In this document: positions 1,985-28,988 of the stretch, in pieces
Position numbering within the stretch: position 1 is the stretch's first letter
How the letters are laid out: every line of letters begins with the position of its first letter
Source: a virus
Lineage: Duplodnaviria > Heunggongvirae > Uroviricota > Caudoviricetes
Length of the DNA: 38,529 nucleotides
Virus record (IMG/VR): IMGVR_UViG_2563366802_000008
Direction: 5' to 3' (one strand)
Made by a program: the position numbers and the translations under genes
The notes under the pieces: generated by a model
The model's database searches: none
Told to the model about the DNA's origin: nothing
What the model saw: only the letters and a program-made list of their open reading frames with translations

Positions 1985-2818
1985 TTATTCTTCTGGATTA
2001 TCGATTACACTGTATTCCCCGGCTATAACCGATATGTCGTCTGGATTAATTGTTTCCACCTCTTTTCCATCCATCGATACTGCACGCTGGATTTCAATAG
2101 ATACCGGCAGATACTTGAACAGTTTTCGTATCACTGTCTTTTTGGCCATGTCTTCAAAGTGTTCATCCCAGATGGACGACGCCCCTTTTGACGCTGCGTT
2201 TTTTGCCGCCTTGCTGTGTGTGTCGCGAACTTTTTCTACTTGTTTGCGGGTCATGACTTCAAACTGCACTCCTCCGTCTTTCAGTTTTGCAACAGCATAG
2301 ACATGGGTTATAGGGGCATCTTCGTTTTCACCGGGACGATGAACCAGTTTTTCATCAAGGCCAAGTTCATAGCTGAATTCATCACATTCACGGACAACAC
2401 GAGCTGACAGACTGATGATTTGACCTGATCGACGGGCAAGGTCGATCATGCCGCGATAACCGATGATCAGCTGTACGTTCTTCTTACCGTTTTTTGCTTT
2501 TCCGTTGCCGAACGGTAGCAGATATGCATGACCGAGGGCGCTACCTGGCTCAAGTCCGAGCTGTGAACACTGTACGATGGCACCGATAAAACTCGTCGAG
2601 TCACAGTTTCTTAGTTCCGGTACTTTACGGATTTCTGTTGTAGCAATGCGGATCATGCGTTCCGCTGTCATGTGACGTGGCAGAGCTGCTGCCAGTTGCG
2701 CTTTCATTGCCGGGCTGTTAATCACGCACAGCACATCCTTATCGTTAACTGCTGCTGGTGCACGGTTTCCCTGAGTTTTTTGCAGATCGGCTTTTGCGAT
2801 AGGTGGTTGCTTAGTCAT
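1985..2818 (-). CDS. recT: Recombinase RecT (single-strand annealing protein)
   Basis: ORF 1985-2875; start at ATG 2816-2818 ([16 protein letters not shown]...) matches recalled K-12 RecT; start sits 2 nt after the recE stop. Confidence 0.9.
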
Positions 2819-5411
2819 TTGCATACTCCTTAGCCCAGCGGGGCAGTGATAACGTCTTAATAGCTGGCCATTCATCGGTATTTAGGCAGTCAGCCAGGGT
2901 CCGCAGATTGCGGTGATATTCCTGCTGGCCTGCCAGTTTTGCTTCTTCGCCCATCATGAAAATCTCAACCGGATAACGTCCGCATTCAACAGTTGTGCTG
3001 GCAACCAGAAAAACGAAAGTTGGCTGCACACCAAACTGTGCTTCATAACCGTCACTGTAGAATGCATCCTGAACGTGATAGCGGTAGTCGTAATAAGACG
3101 TTTTGAATCGTTGAATATCCGCTGTGGTTTTCACGTCCATGATCCAGTGAAATTCAGGAATAATTTTGTCCGGACGGCACCGACACAAAATTCCTGTTTC
3201 CGGATCTTCCCAGTAAATTGATGATTCAGCGTGTCCGGCGCTTTCAACAAGCCATTGCCCCAGCGGCAAAGCCATAACGCTTTGATACATGAGTTCAATT
3301 TTCCGGCCTTCTTCCGCAGTGATAACCGTTTTTCCTGTGCTTGCGCATTCCATCAGAAACGCTTTCTCTTCTTCTTTTCCGGCGTTTGTACGGCGGTTAA
3401 ATTCAGGTGCTACGATAAAGCGGTTACTAAATTCTTCCGGTTCAAGTACCCGGCAGTGGAAAGCGGTTCCTAAATCGAGCGTTTTTGTCTTTGTAGTGTC
3501 CACGGGGGCATTTTTACGCCACAAATACAGTGCCGGAGTATCAGCAATGTCATCGAGCTGAGACTTACTGACACCGGGACCCGCGTGGTAATTCTCATTC
3601 GAAATTCCGTAATAAATACCGGGCTCTATGTCTTCTACGATTACGGGATCTGCGACTTCGCCAGTTTCATCACTGCAATCGCGATGCGGATCGCTGCCAG
3701 CATTCTCATTGTGCGGATGTTCAGCGCCTTCCATTTCCTCCGGATCATTTTCCTGAACTTCAACCTGATTCTCTTCACCGAATGTTTCCTGGTATGTTGC
3801 GTCGCCCATCACCGCACCACAGTCAGGGCAGTTATCCCCGCCAGTCTGACCGCAGGCATTGCAGACTATTTCCTGTTCCTGTTGCACTACTGGCTCAGGT
3901 TGTTTCGCATCCGGGCTGATTATTTCCGTTTCTGGCTGGTTCTGGTACACAGAATCGCGAGTCTGGATCCCCTTTACCCATTTCGGATCGTTCGGGTCGC
4001 TAATTCCGTCAACAAATTCACCACGTGATGCAGCAAGCAATTTATCGGCATCGACAGGATCTTTTGATGGAATGTTTTTTCGGGCTTCATGGAGTTCTAC
4101 CCGCAGTTCCTGATATTTCGCATCAACAGAATTTACCTGTGACTGAGCATCCAGCGGCTGCGTGTCCTGATGATGTTCAGTTGCGTCCGGTTCCATTGTT
4201 TCAGCCTCTCCCTGTTCAACTGCCGTTGTTCCAGATGGTTGCGGTTTTTCTTCATCATCCTGTTTTCCTTCTTCTGTTACTCGCTGCGGCATCGGGGCAG
4301 AGGAGCGACCGCAGGCAATATCCACGATTTCCGGATCAGGGTTGGCATGATCGGTTTCAGTCAGTACTTTGTTCAGATATTCAGTGACGTGCGCGGGGAT
4401 GACCTCGATCCCAATTGGTGCTTCTTTTACGGACGCAACCACGATGGCGTGGGAATAATCCAGCCCGCCAAGCATGGTGATGAATTTGTCGCGGAAAACA
4501 GAAAAGGGCGGTTTATTTTCAGCGATAATTTCCTCAATGCGTTTAGCGTGTGCCGGATGAAGGTTATAGATGTCCAGATCCATTGAACGGGCCAGTACGC
4601 CAGTGGCTACGTCGCGCGCCAGTGACGTCAGATCGTGTACGAAACCTTCGCCGCGATCGGTGAGGTTTCCGCCGCCAGCATTAGCACCGGAAGCCGTGCG
4701 AGTGATGTGTGAAACACGATTACCCTTCATCCACTCTTTTGTCAGCAGTCCTCGATCGGTGTAGTCAGCGTTCAGGTATGCTTCGAAAAAAGCAGTTATC
4801 AGTCCCAGGTTTGAATTACCAGGATTAGGGAAAACTTTGTCAGTGTCACGAACCAGTTTGTGGAGTTCGCGAATTTCCAGCGGGTCGAGCAGGCTGGTTT
4901 TGTGGGAAACAGCCAGGGCAGTAACAGCCGGTAGTTCTTCAGCCCGAGCAATGTGTAATGCCTGGAGTCCGTCGCGTGAAACGTGCGTTACCGGTTTTTC
5001 GCTGCCGTGTTGAGCAAGCCAACGAATGGGCAGTTCCTGGCCAGAAATTGGGAGTAGCATATTCTCCTCAATCTCAGTCATGTCTTCGCCGTTGACGTTG
5101 GTATTGCCTTGATAGTGAGCGTTGTCTGGTGCTGCTCCCGGTTTTAGTTCCCATGTCATGGAGTCTTTGCTGAGTTGATAGCGTTCACTCCAGGTAAAAT
5201 CGATCTCACCTTCAGCGGGCAGGTCATTAACGACAGGAAAATTCGTGGCAACAGCTTTAAAATAGCTGCTCAGTTTTTTACCTGACTTAACGATCAGGTA
5301 GTCCAGAGTGGCACAGGTCGATTCAAAATCGTTGCTTGCCCACAGGACGACGTCAGGTTCACCGGATGATTTTTTCGCTTTCCGTAACAGGAAGAGTGGT
5401 TTTGTGCTCAT
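2811..5411 (-). CDS. recE: Exonuclease VIII RecE
   Basis: 866-aa ORF; sequence ([20 protein letters not shown]... ending ...RWAKEYAND) matches recalled full-length K-12 RecE. Confidence 0.9.
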
Positions 5412-5512: not shown

Positions 5513-5788
5513 TCAGATTTCACCTTTTAATTTCATTGCAATTAGAGTTGCCAGAAATTCGGCTTTTTTTTCTGCGGGCAGATTCTTTCCGATATGCACC
5601 AGGCACATTTTTTTGACACCTTCATCAAGTGTTTTTACGTTGCCTGATGGACCATCGATATCAACCACAGTGAATGGGGTTTCTTTATTTTCTGTTTTAA
5701 TTACGTAGCCAATGCGCTTTCCTTCCAGATTCACCTCGTGAACAATGTCATCGGTAGTTACAACAGTGGCTTCATAATTGGTAATCAT
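5513..5788 (-). CDS. racC: RacC-like protein
   Basis: ORF 5513-5836; start at internal ATG 5786-5788 (MITNYEATVVTTDD...) preceded by AAGGAG; 91 aa as recalled for RacC. Confidence 0.7.
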   Translation of the reverse strand: MITNYEATVVTTDDIVHEVNLEGKRIGYVIKTENKETPFTVVDIDGPSGNVKTLDEGVKKMCLVHIGKNLPAEKKAEFLATLIAMKLKGEI

Positions 5789-5862: not shown

Positions 5863-6033
5863 TTAAAGTTCATGTGCCATCTGGTCTTTTTCGGCACAAA
5901 CTTCACTGCAATATTTTCTCGGTTCGTCTTTTGATAAAATCCCGTGCATGAAGTGAAGCATTCTTTCAATAGCTTTGCTTTCTTCAACGTCTTTTTTGCA
6001 AAGGTGGTAAGCACATTTTATTTTCTTAGTCAT
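5863..6033 (-). CDS. ydaE: YdaE-like small zinc-binding protein (56 aa)
   Basis: Not in the ORF track (below length cutoff); manual translation gives [56 protein letters not shown]; its ATG overlaps the kilR stop (ATGA). Confidence 0.6.
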   Translation of the reverse strand: MTKKIKCAYHLCKKDVEESKAIERMLHFMHGILSKDEPRKYCSEVCAEKDQMAHEL

Positions 6034-11606: not shown

Positions 11607-11726
11607 GATCCTTTTGAGTAAGTGTGCATTTTGTACATGAGGGTTTAGTCAACAAGGTCTTTATTTTGGATTAATCCTATGGTAAAAAAGAGAAAATTAA
11701 GAGTTTGGATATATAAGGTAATTAAA

Positions 11727-14052
<2,326 letters not shown>

Positions 14053-16566: not shown

Positions 16567-16856
16567 TGGTGAATTTATGTAAAGCGGCGCGGGGCCAGAT
16601 GTGCCAGGTCAGAATTCCTGGCTACTGCAATCACAATCCTGAAACGTCTGTACTGGCGCATTACCGGCTGGCGGGAACGTGCGGAACCGCGATAAAGCCA
16701 CACGATATGCAGGCGGCGATTGCCTGTAGCTCATGCCACGATTTAATCGACGGGAGAGTAAAAACCAGCGATTACACCAAAGAAGAATTACGCCTGATGC
16801 ATGCAGAAGGTGTTTTTCGCACACAAGAAATCTGGAGAAAGGAAGGTTATTTATGA
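16566..16856 (+). CDS. DUF1364-family protein (YbcO/YdaW-like, putative nuclease)
   Basis: 96 aa; LCKAARGQMCQVRIPGYCNHNPETSVLAHYRLAG...ACSSCHD cysteine pattern as in YbcO-like proteins. Confidence 0.65.
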   Translation: MVNLCKAARGQMCQVRIPGYCNHNPETSVLAHYRLAGTCGTAIKPHDMQAAIACSSCHDLIDGRVKTSDYTKEELRLMHAEGVFRTQEIWRKEGYL

Positions 16857-17395
16857 TTTACCCAACAAATACAGGAAAAAGCGGGGAACACCTTCGTCTC
16901 ACCACGCTGGAAAGTGTCTGGATTCAGGGGAAACTGCGTATGTGGGGGCGCTGGTCGTATATTGGCGGCGGTAAGACGGGGAATATGTTTAACCAGTTGC
17001 TGGCATCCAAAAAATTGACGAAAACAGCCATCAATGAAGCCCTGCGCAGAATGAAAAAAGCGGGAATGGATAAAATTGAGCTGGCGATATATTTTCGTGA
17101 GATGATCGAAGGAAAGCAAAAAAGCTGGCTGGCGCATTGTACGGATGCGGAGGCGTTATGCATTGATCGGGTGATTAGTGAAGTGCTGGCAAAACACCCA
17201 GGATTGATTTGTATCCTCCGGCAACGATATGAAGGGAGGGGGATGACTAAGCGTAAAATGGCTGAATTGCTGAATGATGCACATCCTGAGTGGTGTTTTA
17301 GCACATGCGAAAAGCGAATTGCTAATTGGTTAGCCGTTGCTGAATATGCCCTGTATATTCCCATGCGAGAATCATTTGCTCAAAAAATAGCTTGA
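16853..17395 (+). CDS. Putative late-gene antiterminator (Q-like), assigned mainly by position
   Basis: ORF 16733-17395; start chosen at ATG 16853 preceded by AAAGGAAGG and overlapping the upstream stop (ATGA); sits where lambdoid Q genes sit, upstream of tRNAs; family call tentative. Confidence 0.5.
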   Translation: MIYPTNTGKSGEHLRLTTLESVWIQGKLRMWGRWSYIGGGKTGNMFNQLLASKKLTKTAINEALRRMKKAGMDKIELAIYFREMIEGKQKSWLAHCTDAEALCIDRVISEVLAKHPGLICILRQRYEGRGMTKRKMAELLNDAHPEWCFSTCEKRIANWLAVAEYALYIPMRESFAQKIA

Positions 17396-17478
17396 TTTTT
17401 TACGCATAAATTGCTTCAATTCCGGTATGCTTCGCAAAGCTGTATCGCGAGGCGAACCAAGCGCATGAACTTTACCAG

Positions 17479-17507
17479 AACCCGCCATTGAGCGGGTTTT
17501 GTTGTTT
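17479..17507 (+). terminator. Putative rho-independent terminator downstream of the Q-like gene
   Basis: Stem AACCCGC / GCGGGTT with loop CATTGA, followed by TTTTGTTGTTT; a G9 homopolymer follows at 17510-17518. Confidence 0.4.
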
Positions 17508-17549
17508 CTGGGGGGGGGCATTTCGTTAAATGAAGCTGTGTTGTGCGCA

Positions 17550-17731: not shown

Positions 17732-17807
<76 letters not shown>

Positions 17808-17810
17808 TAT

Positions 17811-17885
<75 letters not shown>

Positions 17886-18065
17886 GCATTTGAAATAAGT
17901 CTTATTGTATTGCAGCACTGGCGTATTTTTATTACGTGGGAGCAGGTTGTTTCGAAAAAGTATTCTGTTCTCTGGCTATGATTTGAGGCCAGGTGTAGCC
18001 TGATCTTACCCAGCAATAGTGGACACGCGGCTAAGTGAGTAAACTCTCAGTCAGAGGTGACTCAC

Positions 18066-18365
18066 ATGACAAAAACAGTATCAACCAGTAAAAAACCCCG
18101 TAAACAGCATTCGCCTGAATTTCGCAGTGAAGCCCTGAAGCTTGCTGAACGCATCGGTGTTACTGCCGCAGCCCGTGAACTCAGCCTGTATGAATCACAG
18201 CTCTACAACTGGCGCAGTAAACAGCAAAATCAGCAGACGTCTTCTGAACGTGAACTGGAGATGTCTACCGAGATTGCACGTCTCAAACGCCAGCTGGCAG
18301 AACGGGATGAAGAGCTGGCTATCCTCCAAAAGGCCGCGACATACTTCGCGAAGCGCCTGAAATGA
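18066..18365 (+). CDS. insE: IS3 transposase OrfA (InsE)
   Basis: ORF 18057-18365; [31 protein letters not shown]... matches recalled IS3 InsE. Confidence 0.9.
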
Positions 18366-19228
18366 AGTATGTCTTTATTGAAAAACATCAGGCTGAGTTC
18401 AGCATCAAAGCAATGTGCCGCGTGCTCCGGGTGGCCCGCAGCGGCTGGTATACGTGGTGTCAGCGGCGGACAAGGATAAGCACGCGTCAGCAGTTCCGCC
18501 AACACTGCGACAGCGTTGTCCTCGCGGCTTTTACCCGGTCAAAACAGCGTTACGGTGCCCCACGCCTGACGGATGAACTGCGTGCTCAGGGTTACCCCTT
18601 TAACGTAAAAACCGTGGCGGCAAGCCTGCGCCGTCAGGGACTGAGGGCAAAGGCCTCCCGGAAGTTCAGCCCGGTCAGCTACCGCGCACACGGCCTGCCT
18701 GTGTCAGAAAATCTGTTGGAGCAGGATTTTTACGCCAGTGGCCCGAACCAGAAGTGGGCAGGAGACATCACGTACTTACGTACAGATGAAGGCTGGCTGT
18801 ATCTGGCAGTGGTCATTGACCTGTGGTCACGTGCCGTTATTGGCTGGTCAATGTCGCCACGCATGACGGCGCAACTGGCCTGCGATGCCCTGCAGATGGC
18901 GCTGTGGCGGCGTAAGAGGCCCCGGAACGTTATCGTTCACACGGACCGTGGAGGCCAGTACTGTTCAGCAGATTATCAGGCGCAACTGAAGCGGCATAAT
19001 CTGCGTGGAAGTATGAGCGCAAAAGGTTGCTGCTACGATAATGCCTGCGTGGAAAGCTTCTTTCATTCGCTGAAAGTGGAATGTATCCATGGAGAACACT
19101 TTATCAGCCGGGAAATAATGCGGGCAACGGTGTTTAATTATATCGAATGTGATTACAATCGGTGGCGGCGGCACAGTTGGTGTGGCGGCCTCAGTCCGGA
19201 ACAATTTGAAAACAAGAACCTCGCTTAG
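18362..19228 (+). CDS. insF: IS3 transposase OrfB (InsF), DDE integrase-type catalytic domain
   Basis: 288 aa; [32 protein letters not shown]... matches recalled IS3 InsF; overlaps insE as expected for a -1 frameshift fusion. Confidence 0.9.
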
Positions 19229-19258
19229 GCCTGTGTCCATATTACGTGGGTAGGATCA

Positions 19259-19599
19259 GAGAACTGAAGCTGGCGAACGCGGCAATTACTGACATGCAGA
19301 TGCGCCAGCGTGATGTTGCTGCACTGGATGAAAAATACACGAAGGAGTTAGCTAATGCGAAAGCTGAAAATGATGCTCTGCGTGATGATGTTGCCGCTGG
19401 TCGTCGTCGGTTGCACATCAAAGCAGTCTGTCAGTCAGTGCGTGAAGCCACCACCGCCTCCGGCGTGGATAATGCAGCCTCCCCCCGACTGGCAGACACC
19501 GCTGAACGGGATTATTTCACCCTCCGGGAACGACTGGTAATGATGCAGGCCCAACTTGAAGGTGCTCAGCAATACATAACCGAACAGTGTTTAAAGTAA
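19259..19599 (+). pseudogene. rzpR: Rz (i-spanin) 3' fragment, truncated by the IS3 insertion/deletion
   Basis: Reading frame entering from the IS3 right end encodes ...[60 protein letters not shown]..., the C-terminal two-thirds of Rz; no N-terminus or start codon on the other side of IS3. Confidence 0.75.
19355..19540 (+). CDS. rzoR: Rz1 o-spanin lipoprotein (RzoR), nested in the Rz +1 frame
   Basis: 61 aa; [24 protein letters not shown] lipobox and proline-rich [15 protein letters not shown]; embedded within the Rz fragment. Confidence 0.8.
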
Positions 19600-19736
19600 A
19601 ATCTTAACTACAATATGATTCATTTTGATGATTGTTTCATAAGGAACAGTGAAGTAAGATCTAAGAGGAGTTAAATTTTATACAGTATAATCATAATATT
19701 GCAGCAAGGTGGTTATAATTGAAAGAATATTTAGAT

Positions 19737-21194
19737 ATGAATACATCTCATGTAAGAGTTGTTACTCATATGTGTGGGTTCCTGGTTTGGCTCTATAGTC
19801 TTTCAATGTTGCCACCAATGGTTGTAGCATTGTTTTATAAAGAAAAAAGCCTGTTCGTTTTCTTTATAACTTTCGTTATATTTTTTTGCATTGGTGGCGG
19901 AGCGTGGTATACAACTAAGAAATCTGGCATTCAATTACGTACCCGTGATGGGTTTATTATAATTGTAATGTTTTGGATTTTGTTTTCTGTTATTAGTGCA
20001 TTCCCTTTATGGATTGACTCAGAACTTAATTTAACGTTCATTGATGCTCTGTTTGAAGGGGTTTCTGGAATAACAACAACAGGAGCAACTGTAATTGATG
20101 ATGTTAGTTCATTACCTCGGGCATATTTGTACTATCGGTCACAGTTAAATTTTATAGGTGGTTTAGGAGTTATTGTTCTGGCGGTTGCTGTATTGCCATT
20201 ATTGGGTATTGGTGGTGCAAAGCTTTATCAGTCAGAAATGCCGGGGCCATTTAAGGATGACAAACTCACTCCCCGCCTGGCCGATACGTCACGGACACTG
20301 TGGATAACTTATTCTTTATTAGGTATTGCTTGTATTGTCTGTTATAGACTTGCAGGAATGCCTTTGTTTGATGCTATTTGTCACGGGATTTCCACAGTTT
20401 CGCTTGGTGGTTTCTCAACTCATAGCGAGAGTATCGGATATTTTAATAACTATTTGGTTGAGCTGGTGGCTGGTTCTTTTTCCCTGCTATCGGCTTTCAA
20501 CTTCACTCTTTGGTATATTGTTATTAGCAGGAAAACGATAAAACCTTTAATCAGAGATATTGAACTTCGTTTCTTTCTGTTAATAGCCTTAGGGGTGATC
20601 ATTGTTACCTCTTTCCAGGTCTGGCATATAGGTATGTATGACTTGCATGGAAGTTTTATTCATTCGTTTTTTCTTGCCAGCTCCATGCTCACTGATAATG
20701 GTTTAGCTACGCAGGATTATGCAAGTTGGCCCACGCACACGATAGTGTTTTTGCTGTTGTCAAGTTTCTTTGGGGGATGTATAGGTTCAACTTGTGGTGG
20801 AATTAAGTCACTTCGATTTCTTATACTTTTCAAACAAAGCAAACACGAGATAAATCAGCTTTCTCATCCCAGAGCGTTGTTGAGTGTAAATGTAGGAGGG
20901 AAGATAGTTACAGATCGTGTAATGAGGTCTGTATGGAGTTTCTTTTTTCTTTATACTCTCTTCACGGTGTTTTTTATACTGGTGTTAAATGGTATGGGAT
21001 ATGATTTTCTTACATCATTTGCAACAGTGGCTGCATGTATTAATAATATGGGATTAGGTTTTGGGGCTACTGCATCGTCATTCGGAGTGCTTAATGACAT
21101 TGCAAAATGTTTAATGTGCATAGCTATGATTCTTGGTCGCCTTGAAATTTATCCTGTTATTATATTGTTTTCAGGTTTTTTTTGGCGCTCCTAA
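19737..21194 (+). CDS. trkG: Trk-system potassium uptake protein TrkG (prophage moron)
   Basis: ORF 19719-21194; start at ATG 19737 (MNTSHVRVVTHMCGFLVWLYS...) matches recalled K-12 TrkG; multi-pass membrane protein; AT-rich. Confidence 0.85.
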   Translation: MNTSHVRVVTHMCGFLVWLYSLSMLPPMVVALFYKEKSLFVFFITFVIFFCIGGGAWYTTKKSGIQLRTRDGFIIIVMFWILFSVISAFPLWIDSELNLTFIDALFEGVSGITTTGATVIDDVSSLPRAYLYYRSQLNFIGGLGVIVLAVAVLPLLGIGGAKLYQSEMPGPFKDDKLTPRLADTSRTLWITYSLLGIACIVCYRLAGMPLFDAICHGISTVSLGGFSTHSESIGYFNNYLVELVAGSFSLLSAFNFTLWYIVISRKTIKPLIRDIELRFFLLIALGVIIVTSFQVWHIGMYDLHGSFIHSFFLASSMLTDNGLATQDYASWPTHTIVFLLLSSFFGGCIGSTCGGIKSLRFLILFKQSKHEINQLSHPRALLSVNVGGKIVTDRVMRSVWSFFFLYTLFTVFFILVLNGMGYDFLTSFATVAACINNMGLGFGATASSFGVLNDIAKCLMCIAMILGRLEIYPVIILFSGFFWRS

Positions 21195-21331: not shown

Positions 21332-22123
21332 ATGAGCGAGAAATTAAAGATAGTCTATCGCCCATTACAAGAATTGTCACCGTATGCGCACAACGCCAGG
21401 ACGCACAGCCCTGAGCAGGTGGCACAACTGGTAGAAAGTATTAAGCAATTCGGCTGGACTAATCCGGTGCTGATTGACGAAAAGGGCGAAATTATTGCGG
21501 GTCACGGTCGTGTTATGGCGGCTGAAATGCTCAAAATGGATTCTGTTCCGGTCATTGTTCTGTCTGGCCTGACGGATGAGCAGAAAAAGGCGTACCGCCT
21601 GGCAGATAATCGCCTGCCGATGAATGCTGGCTGGGATGAAGATCTGTTGCGGATGGAGCTGTCGGACCTAATCAATGCTGATTTTGATGTCTCCCTGACA
21701 GGCTTCATCCCGACAGAAATTGATGAACTGTTGACGGATGTTTTGCCCGGTACAGGAAATGAGGAGGAGCCGTATACGACGAAAATTGATACGCCTGTTT
21801 ATGAGCCGTCGGGCGGTAAACCGGATATCAGTGAACTGTACGACGATACGAAAACTCAGGAGCTGATCAGCCGGATACGTTCGGCGTCCCTTGAGCCTGA
21901 TATTGAGAAATTCCTCCTGTGTGCGGCAGAACGTCACACGGTGTTTAATTTCAGCAGAATTGCGGACTATTACGCTCACGCCCCCTCTGAAATTCAGTGT
22001 TTTTTCGAGGAGTCGGCGCTGGTGATCATTGATTATCAGCAGGCTATTGAAAATGGATTTGTCCGGATGACGCAGCGCATGGTGGAGATCATGCATGGTG
22101 GTGAGGAGGAGGAATATGCGTGA
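21332..22123 (+). CDS. ynaK: ParB-like nuclease domain protein (YnaK-like)
   Basis: 263 aa; N-terminal ParB/Srx-type region with GHGR motif (GEIIAGHGRVMAA). Confidence 0.7.
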   Translation: MSEKLKIVYRPLQELSPYAHNARTHSPEQVAQLVESIKQFGWTNPVLIDEKGEIIAGHGRVMAAEMLKMDSVPVIVLSGLTDEQKKAYRLADNRLPMNAGWDEDLLRMELSDLINADFDVSLTGFIPTEIDELLTDVLPGTGNEEEPYTTKIDTPVYEPSGGKPDISELYDDTKTQELISRIRSASLEPDIEKFLLCAAERHTVFNFSRIADYYAHAPSEIQCFFEESALVIIDYQQAIENGFVRMTQRMVEIMHGGEEEEYA

Positions 22124-23048
22124 TGATTTTTGCGCCTTTATTCTGACTCACGGGCGACCGGACAAAGTTCTGACTTACCGGACGTTGCGTCGTGCTGGCT
22201 ATACCGGGAAAATTTTTATCGTTGTTGATGATGAAGATAAGACACGGAATCAGTACATGGCTGAATTTGGTGAACAGGTGCTGGTGTTTTCCAAAGCCGA
22301 TATCGCCAGTCGTTTTGACGAAGCCGATAATTTCTGTGACCGCCGCTCAATTTTTTACGCCCGTAATGCCTGTTTCGACCTGGCAAAACTGGTCGGGTGT
22401 AAATACTTCATTCAGCTCGATGATGATTATCACGAGTTCCAGTTTCGGGTGGATCGCAACTATGACCAGGCCTATTTTCCGATAAGGAAACTGGATGCGA
22501 TCCTTTCTGAAATGCTGGCGTACTACGAATCAATACCTGCTCTTTCCATCGCTATGTCGCAGGGCGGGGATTTTCTTGGTGACAATGGCGGCCATGCTTC
22601 GTGGGTGAAACGCAAGGCAATGAACAGCTTTATCTGTTCGGTTGATCGACCGTTCTCATTCATGGGGCGCATTAACGAGGATGTGAATACGTACACGAAT
22701 CTCGGTCGCTGTGGTGAATTGTTTATGACGATCGGTGCTGTCCAGTTAGGGCAGAAACAGACGCAGAAAAACAGCGGCGGAATGACCGAGCTGTATCTGG
22801 ATTCCGGAACCTACGTTAAAAGTTTTTACTCCGTCATGTATGCGCCGTCGTGCGTAAAAATCTCACTGATGGGTGCCAGCCATAAACGCATTCACCATCA
22901 GGTCACCTGGAACAACGCTGCAGTAAAAATCCTTCACGAAAAATACAGGAAGAAGACACCCTGCATATCAATGGGGGTGACAAATGATTCCGTATTCGAA
23001 AGTCGAGTCTCTGGCAGCGTGCCGGATGACTGCACAACAAATCGCTGA
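22116..23048 (+). CDS. YdaY-like uncharacterised protein (possible DxD-motif transferase fold; tentative)
   Basis: ORF 22095-23048; start chosen at ATG 22116 preceded by GAGGAGGAGG; contains FIQLDDDY; overlaps the ynaK stop. Confidence 0.5.
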   Translation: MRDDFCAFILTHGRPDKVLTYRTLRRAGYTGKIFIVVDDEDKTRNQYMAEFGEQVLVFSKADIASRFDEADNFCDRRSIFYARNACFDLAKLVGCKYFIQLDDDYHEFQFRVDRNYDQAYFPIRKLDAILSEMLAYYESIPALSIAMSQGGDFLGDNGGHASWVKRKAMNSFICSVDRPFSFMGRINEDVNTYTNLGRCGELFMTIGAVQLGQKQTQKNSGGMTELYLDSGTYVKSFYSVMYAPSCVKISLMGASHKRIHHQVTWNNAAVKILHEKYRKKTPCISMGVTNDSVFESRVSGSVPDDCTTNR

Positions 23049-28224: not shown

Positions 28225-28988
28225 ATGAAACTGAAAACGGTCGAGATTAACGGAAAACAATACGCAGAAATTGATACTGCTGGCCTGCCAGTTTATGTGC
28301 ACGACGATGGTAAAGAAATTGGCTTCGATGCACCGCTGGCGACAAAAAAATTACAGAGCTTAATGGCGAGGCAAAAAATCATCGCCTGGCTAAAGAAGCT
28401 GCAGAGGAAAAACTGGCTAAGTTTGCCGCTATCGAAGACCCGAAGAAGGCGATCGAGGCACTGGAAATGCTGTCAAAAATCGACCAGAAAAAGCTGCTCG
28501 ATGCGGGACAGGTTGACCAGGTTAAGGCAGAAATTACGAAAAATTTTCAGCAGCAATTAGATGAAGAAAAGCAACGCTCTCAGATGCTGGAGAAGCAGCT
28601 TTACGATTCTATGATTGGTGGTAGTTTTGCGGGTTCAAAATATATTGCCGATAAAATTGCGATCCCGGCAGATTTATTACAATCACGCTTCGGGCAGGCA
28701 TTCAAAGTGGAAGAAGGGAGGATCGTTGCTTATGACGCTTCCGGCAACAAAATTTATTCCCGCGCGAAGCCTGGCGAACTGGCGCAGTTTGATGAGGCGC
28801 TGGAGTTCCTTGTCGAAAATTACCCTCAGAAAGACTACATCCTGAAAGCCAGTGGCAACAATGGCGGCGGCTCCCGTCCGACACAGCATGATATTGGTCA
28901 GAAAACGATGAAACGCTCTGCTTTTGATGCACTGGATGTTGCAGGTAAGCAAAACGCATTGAAAGACGGTATCACAATCGTTGATTAA
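28225..28988 (+). CDS. Putative scaffolding-type head protein; needs a -1 shift at an A7 tract to be read through
   Basis: Frame A from ATG 28225 (MKLKTVEINGKQYAEIDTAGLPVYVHDDGKEIGFDAPLATKK) turns to basic junk after 28350; frame B is open from 28314 (...ITELNGEAKNHRLAKEAAEEKLAKF...) to 28988; frames overlap at AAAAAAA 28344-28350. Confidence 0.45.

Follow-up and report, generated by a model that had tools for sequence, protein, structure and literature searches.

Probable loss of the holin and endolysin genes of a Rac-type prophage of Escherichia coli through a deletion beside a resident IS3

We propose that an IS3 element already present in a Rac-type prophage, within the late region, brought about the loss of about 1.4 kb next to it, a reading to which we give a probability of roughly 0.8. 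The prophage lies in the window, by which we mean the whole stretch of 38,529 nucleotides that was analyzed. In this prophage at ttcA, intramolecular transposition that used one end of the resident IS3, or an equivalent adjacent deletion by the transposase, would have taken Rz codons 1-41 together with a small ORF, the holin gene essD and the lysozyme gene rrrD. The element would thereby have been left between sequences that are not neighbors in intact relatives, and without a target-site duplication. The deletion is linked to the IS3 by the missing duplication, by ends that coincide exactly with the IS termini and by a junction in common with strain 3359. We infer the molecular route and the choice of the original insertion flank from comparison with relatives, the ancestor and the order of events being unobserved.

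The window was recognized as a Rac-type prophage of E. coli by its gene content and order and by the ttcA site. intR occupies positions 1-1236 on the minus strand and adjoins ttcA in the near-identical prophage of strain ET210; it is followed by recET, kilR, sieB, trkG, ynaK and ydaY in the order of K-12 Rac. Tail gene K is cut by the window end, beyond which the distal tail genes lie. The ET210 prophage is collinear with the rest of the window at an identity of at least 99.9%, and both of its flanks of the missing interval are 100% identical to the window. The features around the IS3 are collected in Table 1.

Table 1. Features from the late antiterminator gene to trkG, in window coordinates.
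Feature	Position	Strand	Basis and remarks
Q-like late antiterminator gene (DUF1133)	16853..17395	+	PF06576 5.5e-104; PF06530; phrog_753 9.5e-77
Terminator-like hairpin and T-run, downstream of Q	17476..17501	+	consensus scan only; retained
tRNA-Thr(tgt)	17732..17807	+	ARAGORN; intact
tRNA-Gly(tcc)	17811..17885	+	ARAGORN; intact
Retained 115-bp spacer after tRNA-Gly	17886..18000	.	100% identity with ET210 as far as the IS3
Complete IS3	18001..19258	+	1258 bp; 0 differences (100% identity) vs the IS3 of ET210 and of 3359
IS3 IRL	about 18001-18039		
IS3 orfA	18066-18365		PF01527 (HTH_Tnp_1)
IS3 orfB	18362-19228		PF00665 (rve), PF13333 and PF13276; rve_2
IS3 IRR	about 19220-19258		
Truncated Rz (i-spanin), residues 42-154	19258..19599	+	tblastn 100% identity; PF03245; phrog_13 positions 43-154 of 154
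Rz1 / RzoD o-spanin lipoprotein gene	19355..19540	+	PF06085 2e-19; 61 aa
trkG, Rac prophage K+ transporter moron	19719..21194	+	ORF list and relatives' annotation

The initial annotation had described an IS3 whose left end abuts sequence just downstream of the tRNAs and whose right end abuts an Rz frame that begins mid-protein, and it had placed this arrangement between 17886 and 19599. Each of these points was borne out, the interval opening immediately past tRNA-Gly and closing on the stop codon of Rz. The DUF1133 gene upstream of the position of the lost cassette was likewise correctly described as Q-like: it matches PF06530 (E 2.2e-06, 28.0 bits versus a cutoff of 26 bits) as well as phrog_753, which carries the name 'anti-termination protein Q-like'. 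The hairpin downstream of it is a candidate tR'-type terminator, a role proposed from its form and position, and both tRNAs are annotated at the same place in relatives. The spacer between tRNA-Gly and the IS3 matches the intact relatives and stops 3 nt short of the start of a hypothetical ORF that they carry. With the Q-like gene, the terminator-like hairpin and both tRNAs still in place, transcription of the late region could still initiate and continue across the IS3. The G-run just after the hairpin (17510-17518) is one G longer than in ET210, a homopolymer variation in the intergenic region between Q and the tRNAs.

On the right, the IS3 abuts codon 42 of Rz, an intact copy of which has 154 codons; the first base of this codon is the terminal A of the IS3. 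Only the last 113 Rz codons are left, and they do not make a complete i-spanin, which has a membrane anchor at its N-terminus and a coiled-coil domain in the periplasm: the hydrophobic stretch at about residues 5-23 of intact Rz (TAIISALVICIIVCLSWAV) is deleted in the window. The gene for Rz1, which had been called intact, is indeed complete; it is embedded in the +1 frame of Rz, contains ...LVVVGC and is identical to the annotated RzoD of ET210. The next gene downstream, trkG, is kept in the window and lost in strain 3359.

The missing interval was sized by alignment to intact Rac-type prophages, as had been suggested at the outset. The left flank ends at position 4499 of the FDAARGOS_1268 locus (L001) and at 5761 of the ET210 locus (L002), and the right flank resumes at 5903 and 7175, respectively, so that 1403 bp are missing compared with FDAARGOS_1268 and 1413 bp compared with ET210. 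In these relatives, the gap holds the hypothetical ORF (106 codons, no PHROG match), essD, which encodes a phage-21-type holin (PF04971), rrrD, which encodes a lysozyme (PF00959), and Rz codons 1-41. The cassette belongs to the essD-rrrD-rzpD/rzoD type of DLP12 and intact Rac-type prophages, from which the window keeps only the Rz remnant and the Rz1 gene. The undeleted layout (tRNA, hypothetical ORF, essD, rrrD, Rz, trkG) was matched at a coverage of at least 80% in 154 of 5426 complete E. coli genomes.

The absence of holin, endolysin and Rz N-terminus that had been noted was also supported by searches for displaced copies. Homologues of EssD and RrrD were not found elsewhere in the window by tblastn (best E-values 0.74 and 1.7), so that no holin and endolysin pair stands downstream of Q in the window as in a complete lambdoid lysis cassette. 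No other lysis genes are annotated in the collinear ET210 prophage, and none lie in the distal part of the 3359 prophage, a region that carries ISEc22 and IS5 insertions. A lambdoid prophage without holin and endolysin cannot lyse its host, and with both genes gone the window prophage is likely unable to do so with its own genes. In lambda Rz, the hydrophobic N-terminus is the membrane anchor. As the Rz fragment is devoid of it, the intact Rz1 likely has no working partner. Other prophages of the host may carry lysis cassettes. Flagging the prophage as probably deficient in self-lysis bears on calls of 'intactness' and on the prediction of inducibility, and its value is mostly practical.

We examined how the IS3 came to occupy this junction. 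The termini of the element read TGATC...GATCA, and its two 40-nt ends agree at 28 of 40 positions; the inverted repeats share no exact 9-mer, and the match of the ends was established by hand. As read from the sequence, orfB overlaps orfA in the -1 frame, and RefSeq lists the copies of ET210 and 3359 as 'IS3 family transposase, programmed frameshift', annotated as functional. Length, termini and the two-ORF layout fit IS3 membership, and programmed frameshifting is predicted. The intact element joins sequences that lie apart in relatives, and the deletion boundary coincides exactly with the IS terminus, chance overlap there amounting to no more than 1-2 nt (T at the left end, CA at the right). 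A 3-bp target duplication is not present around this IS3, the flanks being GCC on the left and GAG on the right, while control insertions of IS3 in this late region from three further strains (L003, L004 and L005) show the duplications GGA/GGA, TAA/TAA and GTC/GTC. The missing duplication means that this copy is not a simple insertion; it is no argument against its identity as IS3.

Because the three controls have a duplication and the window has none, a plain insertion is ruled out, including one into an older deletion junction. The same observation bears on the broader idea of a single step, in which the IS3 either arrived together with the deletion by inserting into a break or entered a pre-existing deletion junction. 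For IS5 in E. coli C, an arrival coincident with a large deletion and without duplication has been proposed (PMC11708052). Normal insertion into an existing junction would have left a 3-bp duplication, and we rejected this version on that ground; moreover, strain 3359 shares one junction with the window and differs at the other, so that the IS3 was already resident when at least one of the right junctions formed. We therefore regard a single step as highly improbable.

Strain 3359 is the only one among the 5426 complete E. coli genomes that shares the left IS3 junction. Its junction is one C shorter (GTAGC versus GTAGCC in the window); we attribute the missing C to mutation or misassembly, although the two strains may instead have undergone separate events at a hotspot. 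The right end (IRR) of the 3359 element abuts window position 22085, compared with 19259 in the window itself, and the additional 2826 bp to the right, with the truncated Rz, Rz1, trkG and ynaK, are gone. Over about 24 kb, 4 positions distinguish the window from 3359, and both carry the A8-to-A7 frameshift of the scaffold gene; the simplest reading is that they inherited one and the same IS3 copy. With one IS junction in common and different endpoints on the other side, the deletions of the two prophages are nested, with that junction as their anchor. A shared left junction with differing right junctions implies that at least one of the latter formed beside an already resident IS3. Together with the missing duplication, this larger rightward deletion supports the initial proposal of an IS-associated deletion. 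As a natural case of stepwise deletion from an IS3 anchor in a prophage, the pair is a clean one, and it opens no new question.

Both right-hand endpoints begin with GAGA (19259-19262 in the window and 22085-22088 for strain 3359). This common tetranucleotide could reflect a target preference, or it could be a 4-nt microhomology that was used when the longer deletion arose from a window-like state.

We also considered that the junction is an artefact, with a contig collapsed or misjoined at a repeated IS3. IS3 is a multicopy element and a frequent cause of misassembly, and the right junction was absent from every other collection searched. This explanation is hardly credible, given that the flanks belong to one prophage, stand in the correct order and orientation and lie only 1.4 kb apart in relatives, that the independent complete genome of 3359 has the same left junction, and that the remaining window is collinear with ET210 at the high identity given above.

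The exact right junction (GGATCA+GAGAACTG) was found in 0 of 5426 complete genomes and 0 times in the genome, metagenome and viral contigs scanned; for the left junction, the contig scan covered viral contigs only, and it was not found there. A simple insertion with a GCC duplication would read GGTGTAGCC+TGATCTTACC together with GGATCA+GCCTCAGTGCTG, and an original insertion in Rz would read AATGCCAGAG+TGATC together with the observed right-junction k-mer. A simple IS3 insertion at either junction with an intact cassette was not seen among the 5426 complete genomes, and neither the complete genomes nor the contig scans yielded a precursor in which IS3 is simply inserted at this position. The window allele is unique among the collections searched; its biology is not new.

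These searches bear on a second route to the same arrangement, namely that IS3 had inserted twice in direct orientation, after tRNA-Gly and within Rz, and that homologous recombination between the copies removed the interval and one of them. The product would be identical, with one IS3, no duplication and non-contiguous flanks, so that sequence alone cannot tell the two routes apart; as the IS3 copies are identical, there is no chimeric signature to look for. IS3 enters the late region repeatedly, strain F467 (L004) has two IS3 and one IS2 inside its cassette, and duplications are known to go missing through recombination between IS copies (PMC11708052). Against this, none of the genomes has an IS3 at either of the required positions with an intact duplication, the two IS3 copies of F467 are inverted and sit at other sites, and two further insertions would be needed for the 3359 junction. 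Because no intermediate was found, we rate recombination between two copies below adjacent deletion and consider it doubtful.

Adjacent deletion by a resident IS3 is in line with published cases. IS3 reportedly deletes neighboring DNA over varied lengths (PMC8860574), and in the Lenski long-term evolution lines the IS3-family element IS150 produced adjacent deletions that were often small at first and later larger (PMC11708052). In the deletions by IS3 and IS3-family elements described by Sekine et al. 1994 (as far as cited in PMC8860574), by Kanai et al. 2022 (PMC8860574) and for IS150 (PMC11708052), the IS is kept at the junction, as in the window. The published deletions start exactly at the IS end, lack a duplication, vary in length and can grow stepwise, a pattern that the pair of window and 3359 fits. 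Unlike those deletions, which were directly observed in experiments, the window event is reconstructed by comparison. We regard it as ordinary prophage decay through an IS-associated deletion, a well-known phenomenon.

K-12 Rac is of the same prophage type, sits at the same ttcA site and shares intR, recET, kilR, sieB, trkG, ynaK and ydaY with the window. In its ydaW'-rzpR'-rzoR-trkG region it resembles the window in having no holin and no lysozyme, with a 5'-truncated rzpR, an intact rzoR and then trkG. Its breakpoint differs, however, since its Rz homology begins at nt 21 (about codon 8) instead of codon 42, and its junction is free of IS3. The losses in K-12 and in the window are thus independent. 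The K-12 deletion also took the Q-like gene and the tRNAs, which the window keeps, and K-12 Rac has lost most head and tail genes, the segment 21585-33145 of the window being absent there. A breakpoint common with K-12 Rac, as a BLAST match from 19257 might indicate, was rejected: Rz of K-12 runs about 100 nt further left, and the match appears to start there because the homology of the window itself begins at that point. Records labeled 'phage' that match from query position 3291 reflect the same artefact of where the window homology begins.

A different view of this decay is that Rac domestication is selected and recurrent instead of random. IS3 would repeatedly strike the region from Q to trkG, deletions would drop the lethal lysis genes and keep trkG, trkG and Rz1 would land directly downstream of the outward IS3 promoter P3R, and K-12 Rac would have reached the same end state independently. 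We find this rather improbable.

In the Rac-type Q-to-trkG region of other strains (L002-L005), independent IS3 copies lie in the Q-like gene, in tRNA-Thr, in the gap between essD and rrrD, in rrrD and in Rz, and one strain also has an IS2 in this region. The spacing between IS3 and Rz takes at least six different values among 13 genomes. These many positions suggest that IS elements may recurrently inactivate the lysis module. One of the insertions belongs to ET210, which we rejected as the ancestor of the window: its IS3 is inverted, lies inside tRNA-Thr and has its own short duplication, which marks it as an independent insertion.

The virion module, which the initial annotation had called intact-looking, does not entirely deserve this description. 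The DUF6651 gene (28225-28988), located between the minor head protein gene and the capsid gene, encodes a homologue of head scaffolding proteins (phrog_206, 1.9e-22), and a 1-nt deletion at about 28344 (A8 to A7 versus ET210) splits it into two ORFs; in addition, the distal tail lies past the window end. The gene is annotated as frameshifted in 3359, with the same change. Judged by this frameshift, the virion module is probably defective as well, unless the shortened homopolymer is a sequencing error.

The sequence just left of IRL contains GCCAGGTGTAG (11 nt, window 17988-18000). In a comparison of left flanks (L011 and L010), this motif recurred 6 nt from the IS end of an unrelated IS3 near ydeQ in isolate 648, and the left flank of the K-12 IS3 copy beside an autotransporter pseudogene has CAGGTTGTA. 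There is a loose resemblance between the motif and the IRR end of IS3 itself. Its recurrence may point to a target preference of IS3.

Elsewhere in the window, recE (2811-5411) is a full-length ORF of 866 codons, and recE of ET210 is interrupted by IS421; decay is affecting different genes in the two prophages. Between the replication and late regions, a three-gene island (11679-14052) encodes an adenosine-deaminase-like amidohydrolase (PADLOC CARF_ADA-like, 6.8e-36), a protein named non-canonical purine NTP pyrophosphatase in relatives, for which there was no PADLOC match, and a 264-aa SIR2 protein (ThsA-like SIR2 domain, 8.9e-32). From these assignments, the island looks like a candidate anti-phage cargo module. 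A full-length ParB/Srx-like ynaK (263 aa), shortened in K-12 and many other strains, lies within 21332-23048 and is followed, just upstream of the terminase genes, by a gene for a 317-aa protein that RefSeq names 'GREB1-related' and that matches phrog_842, named beta-glucosyl-HMC-alpha-glucosyltransferase (1.2e-103).
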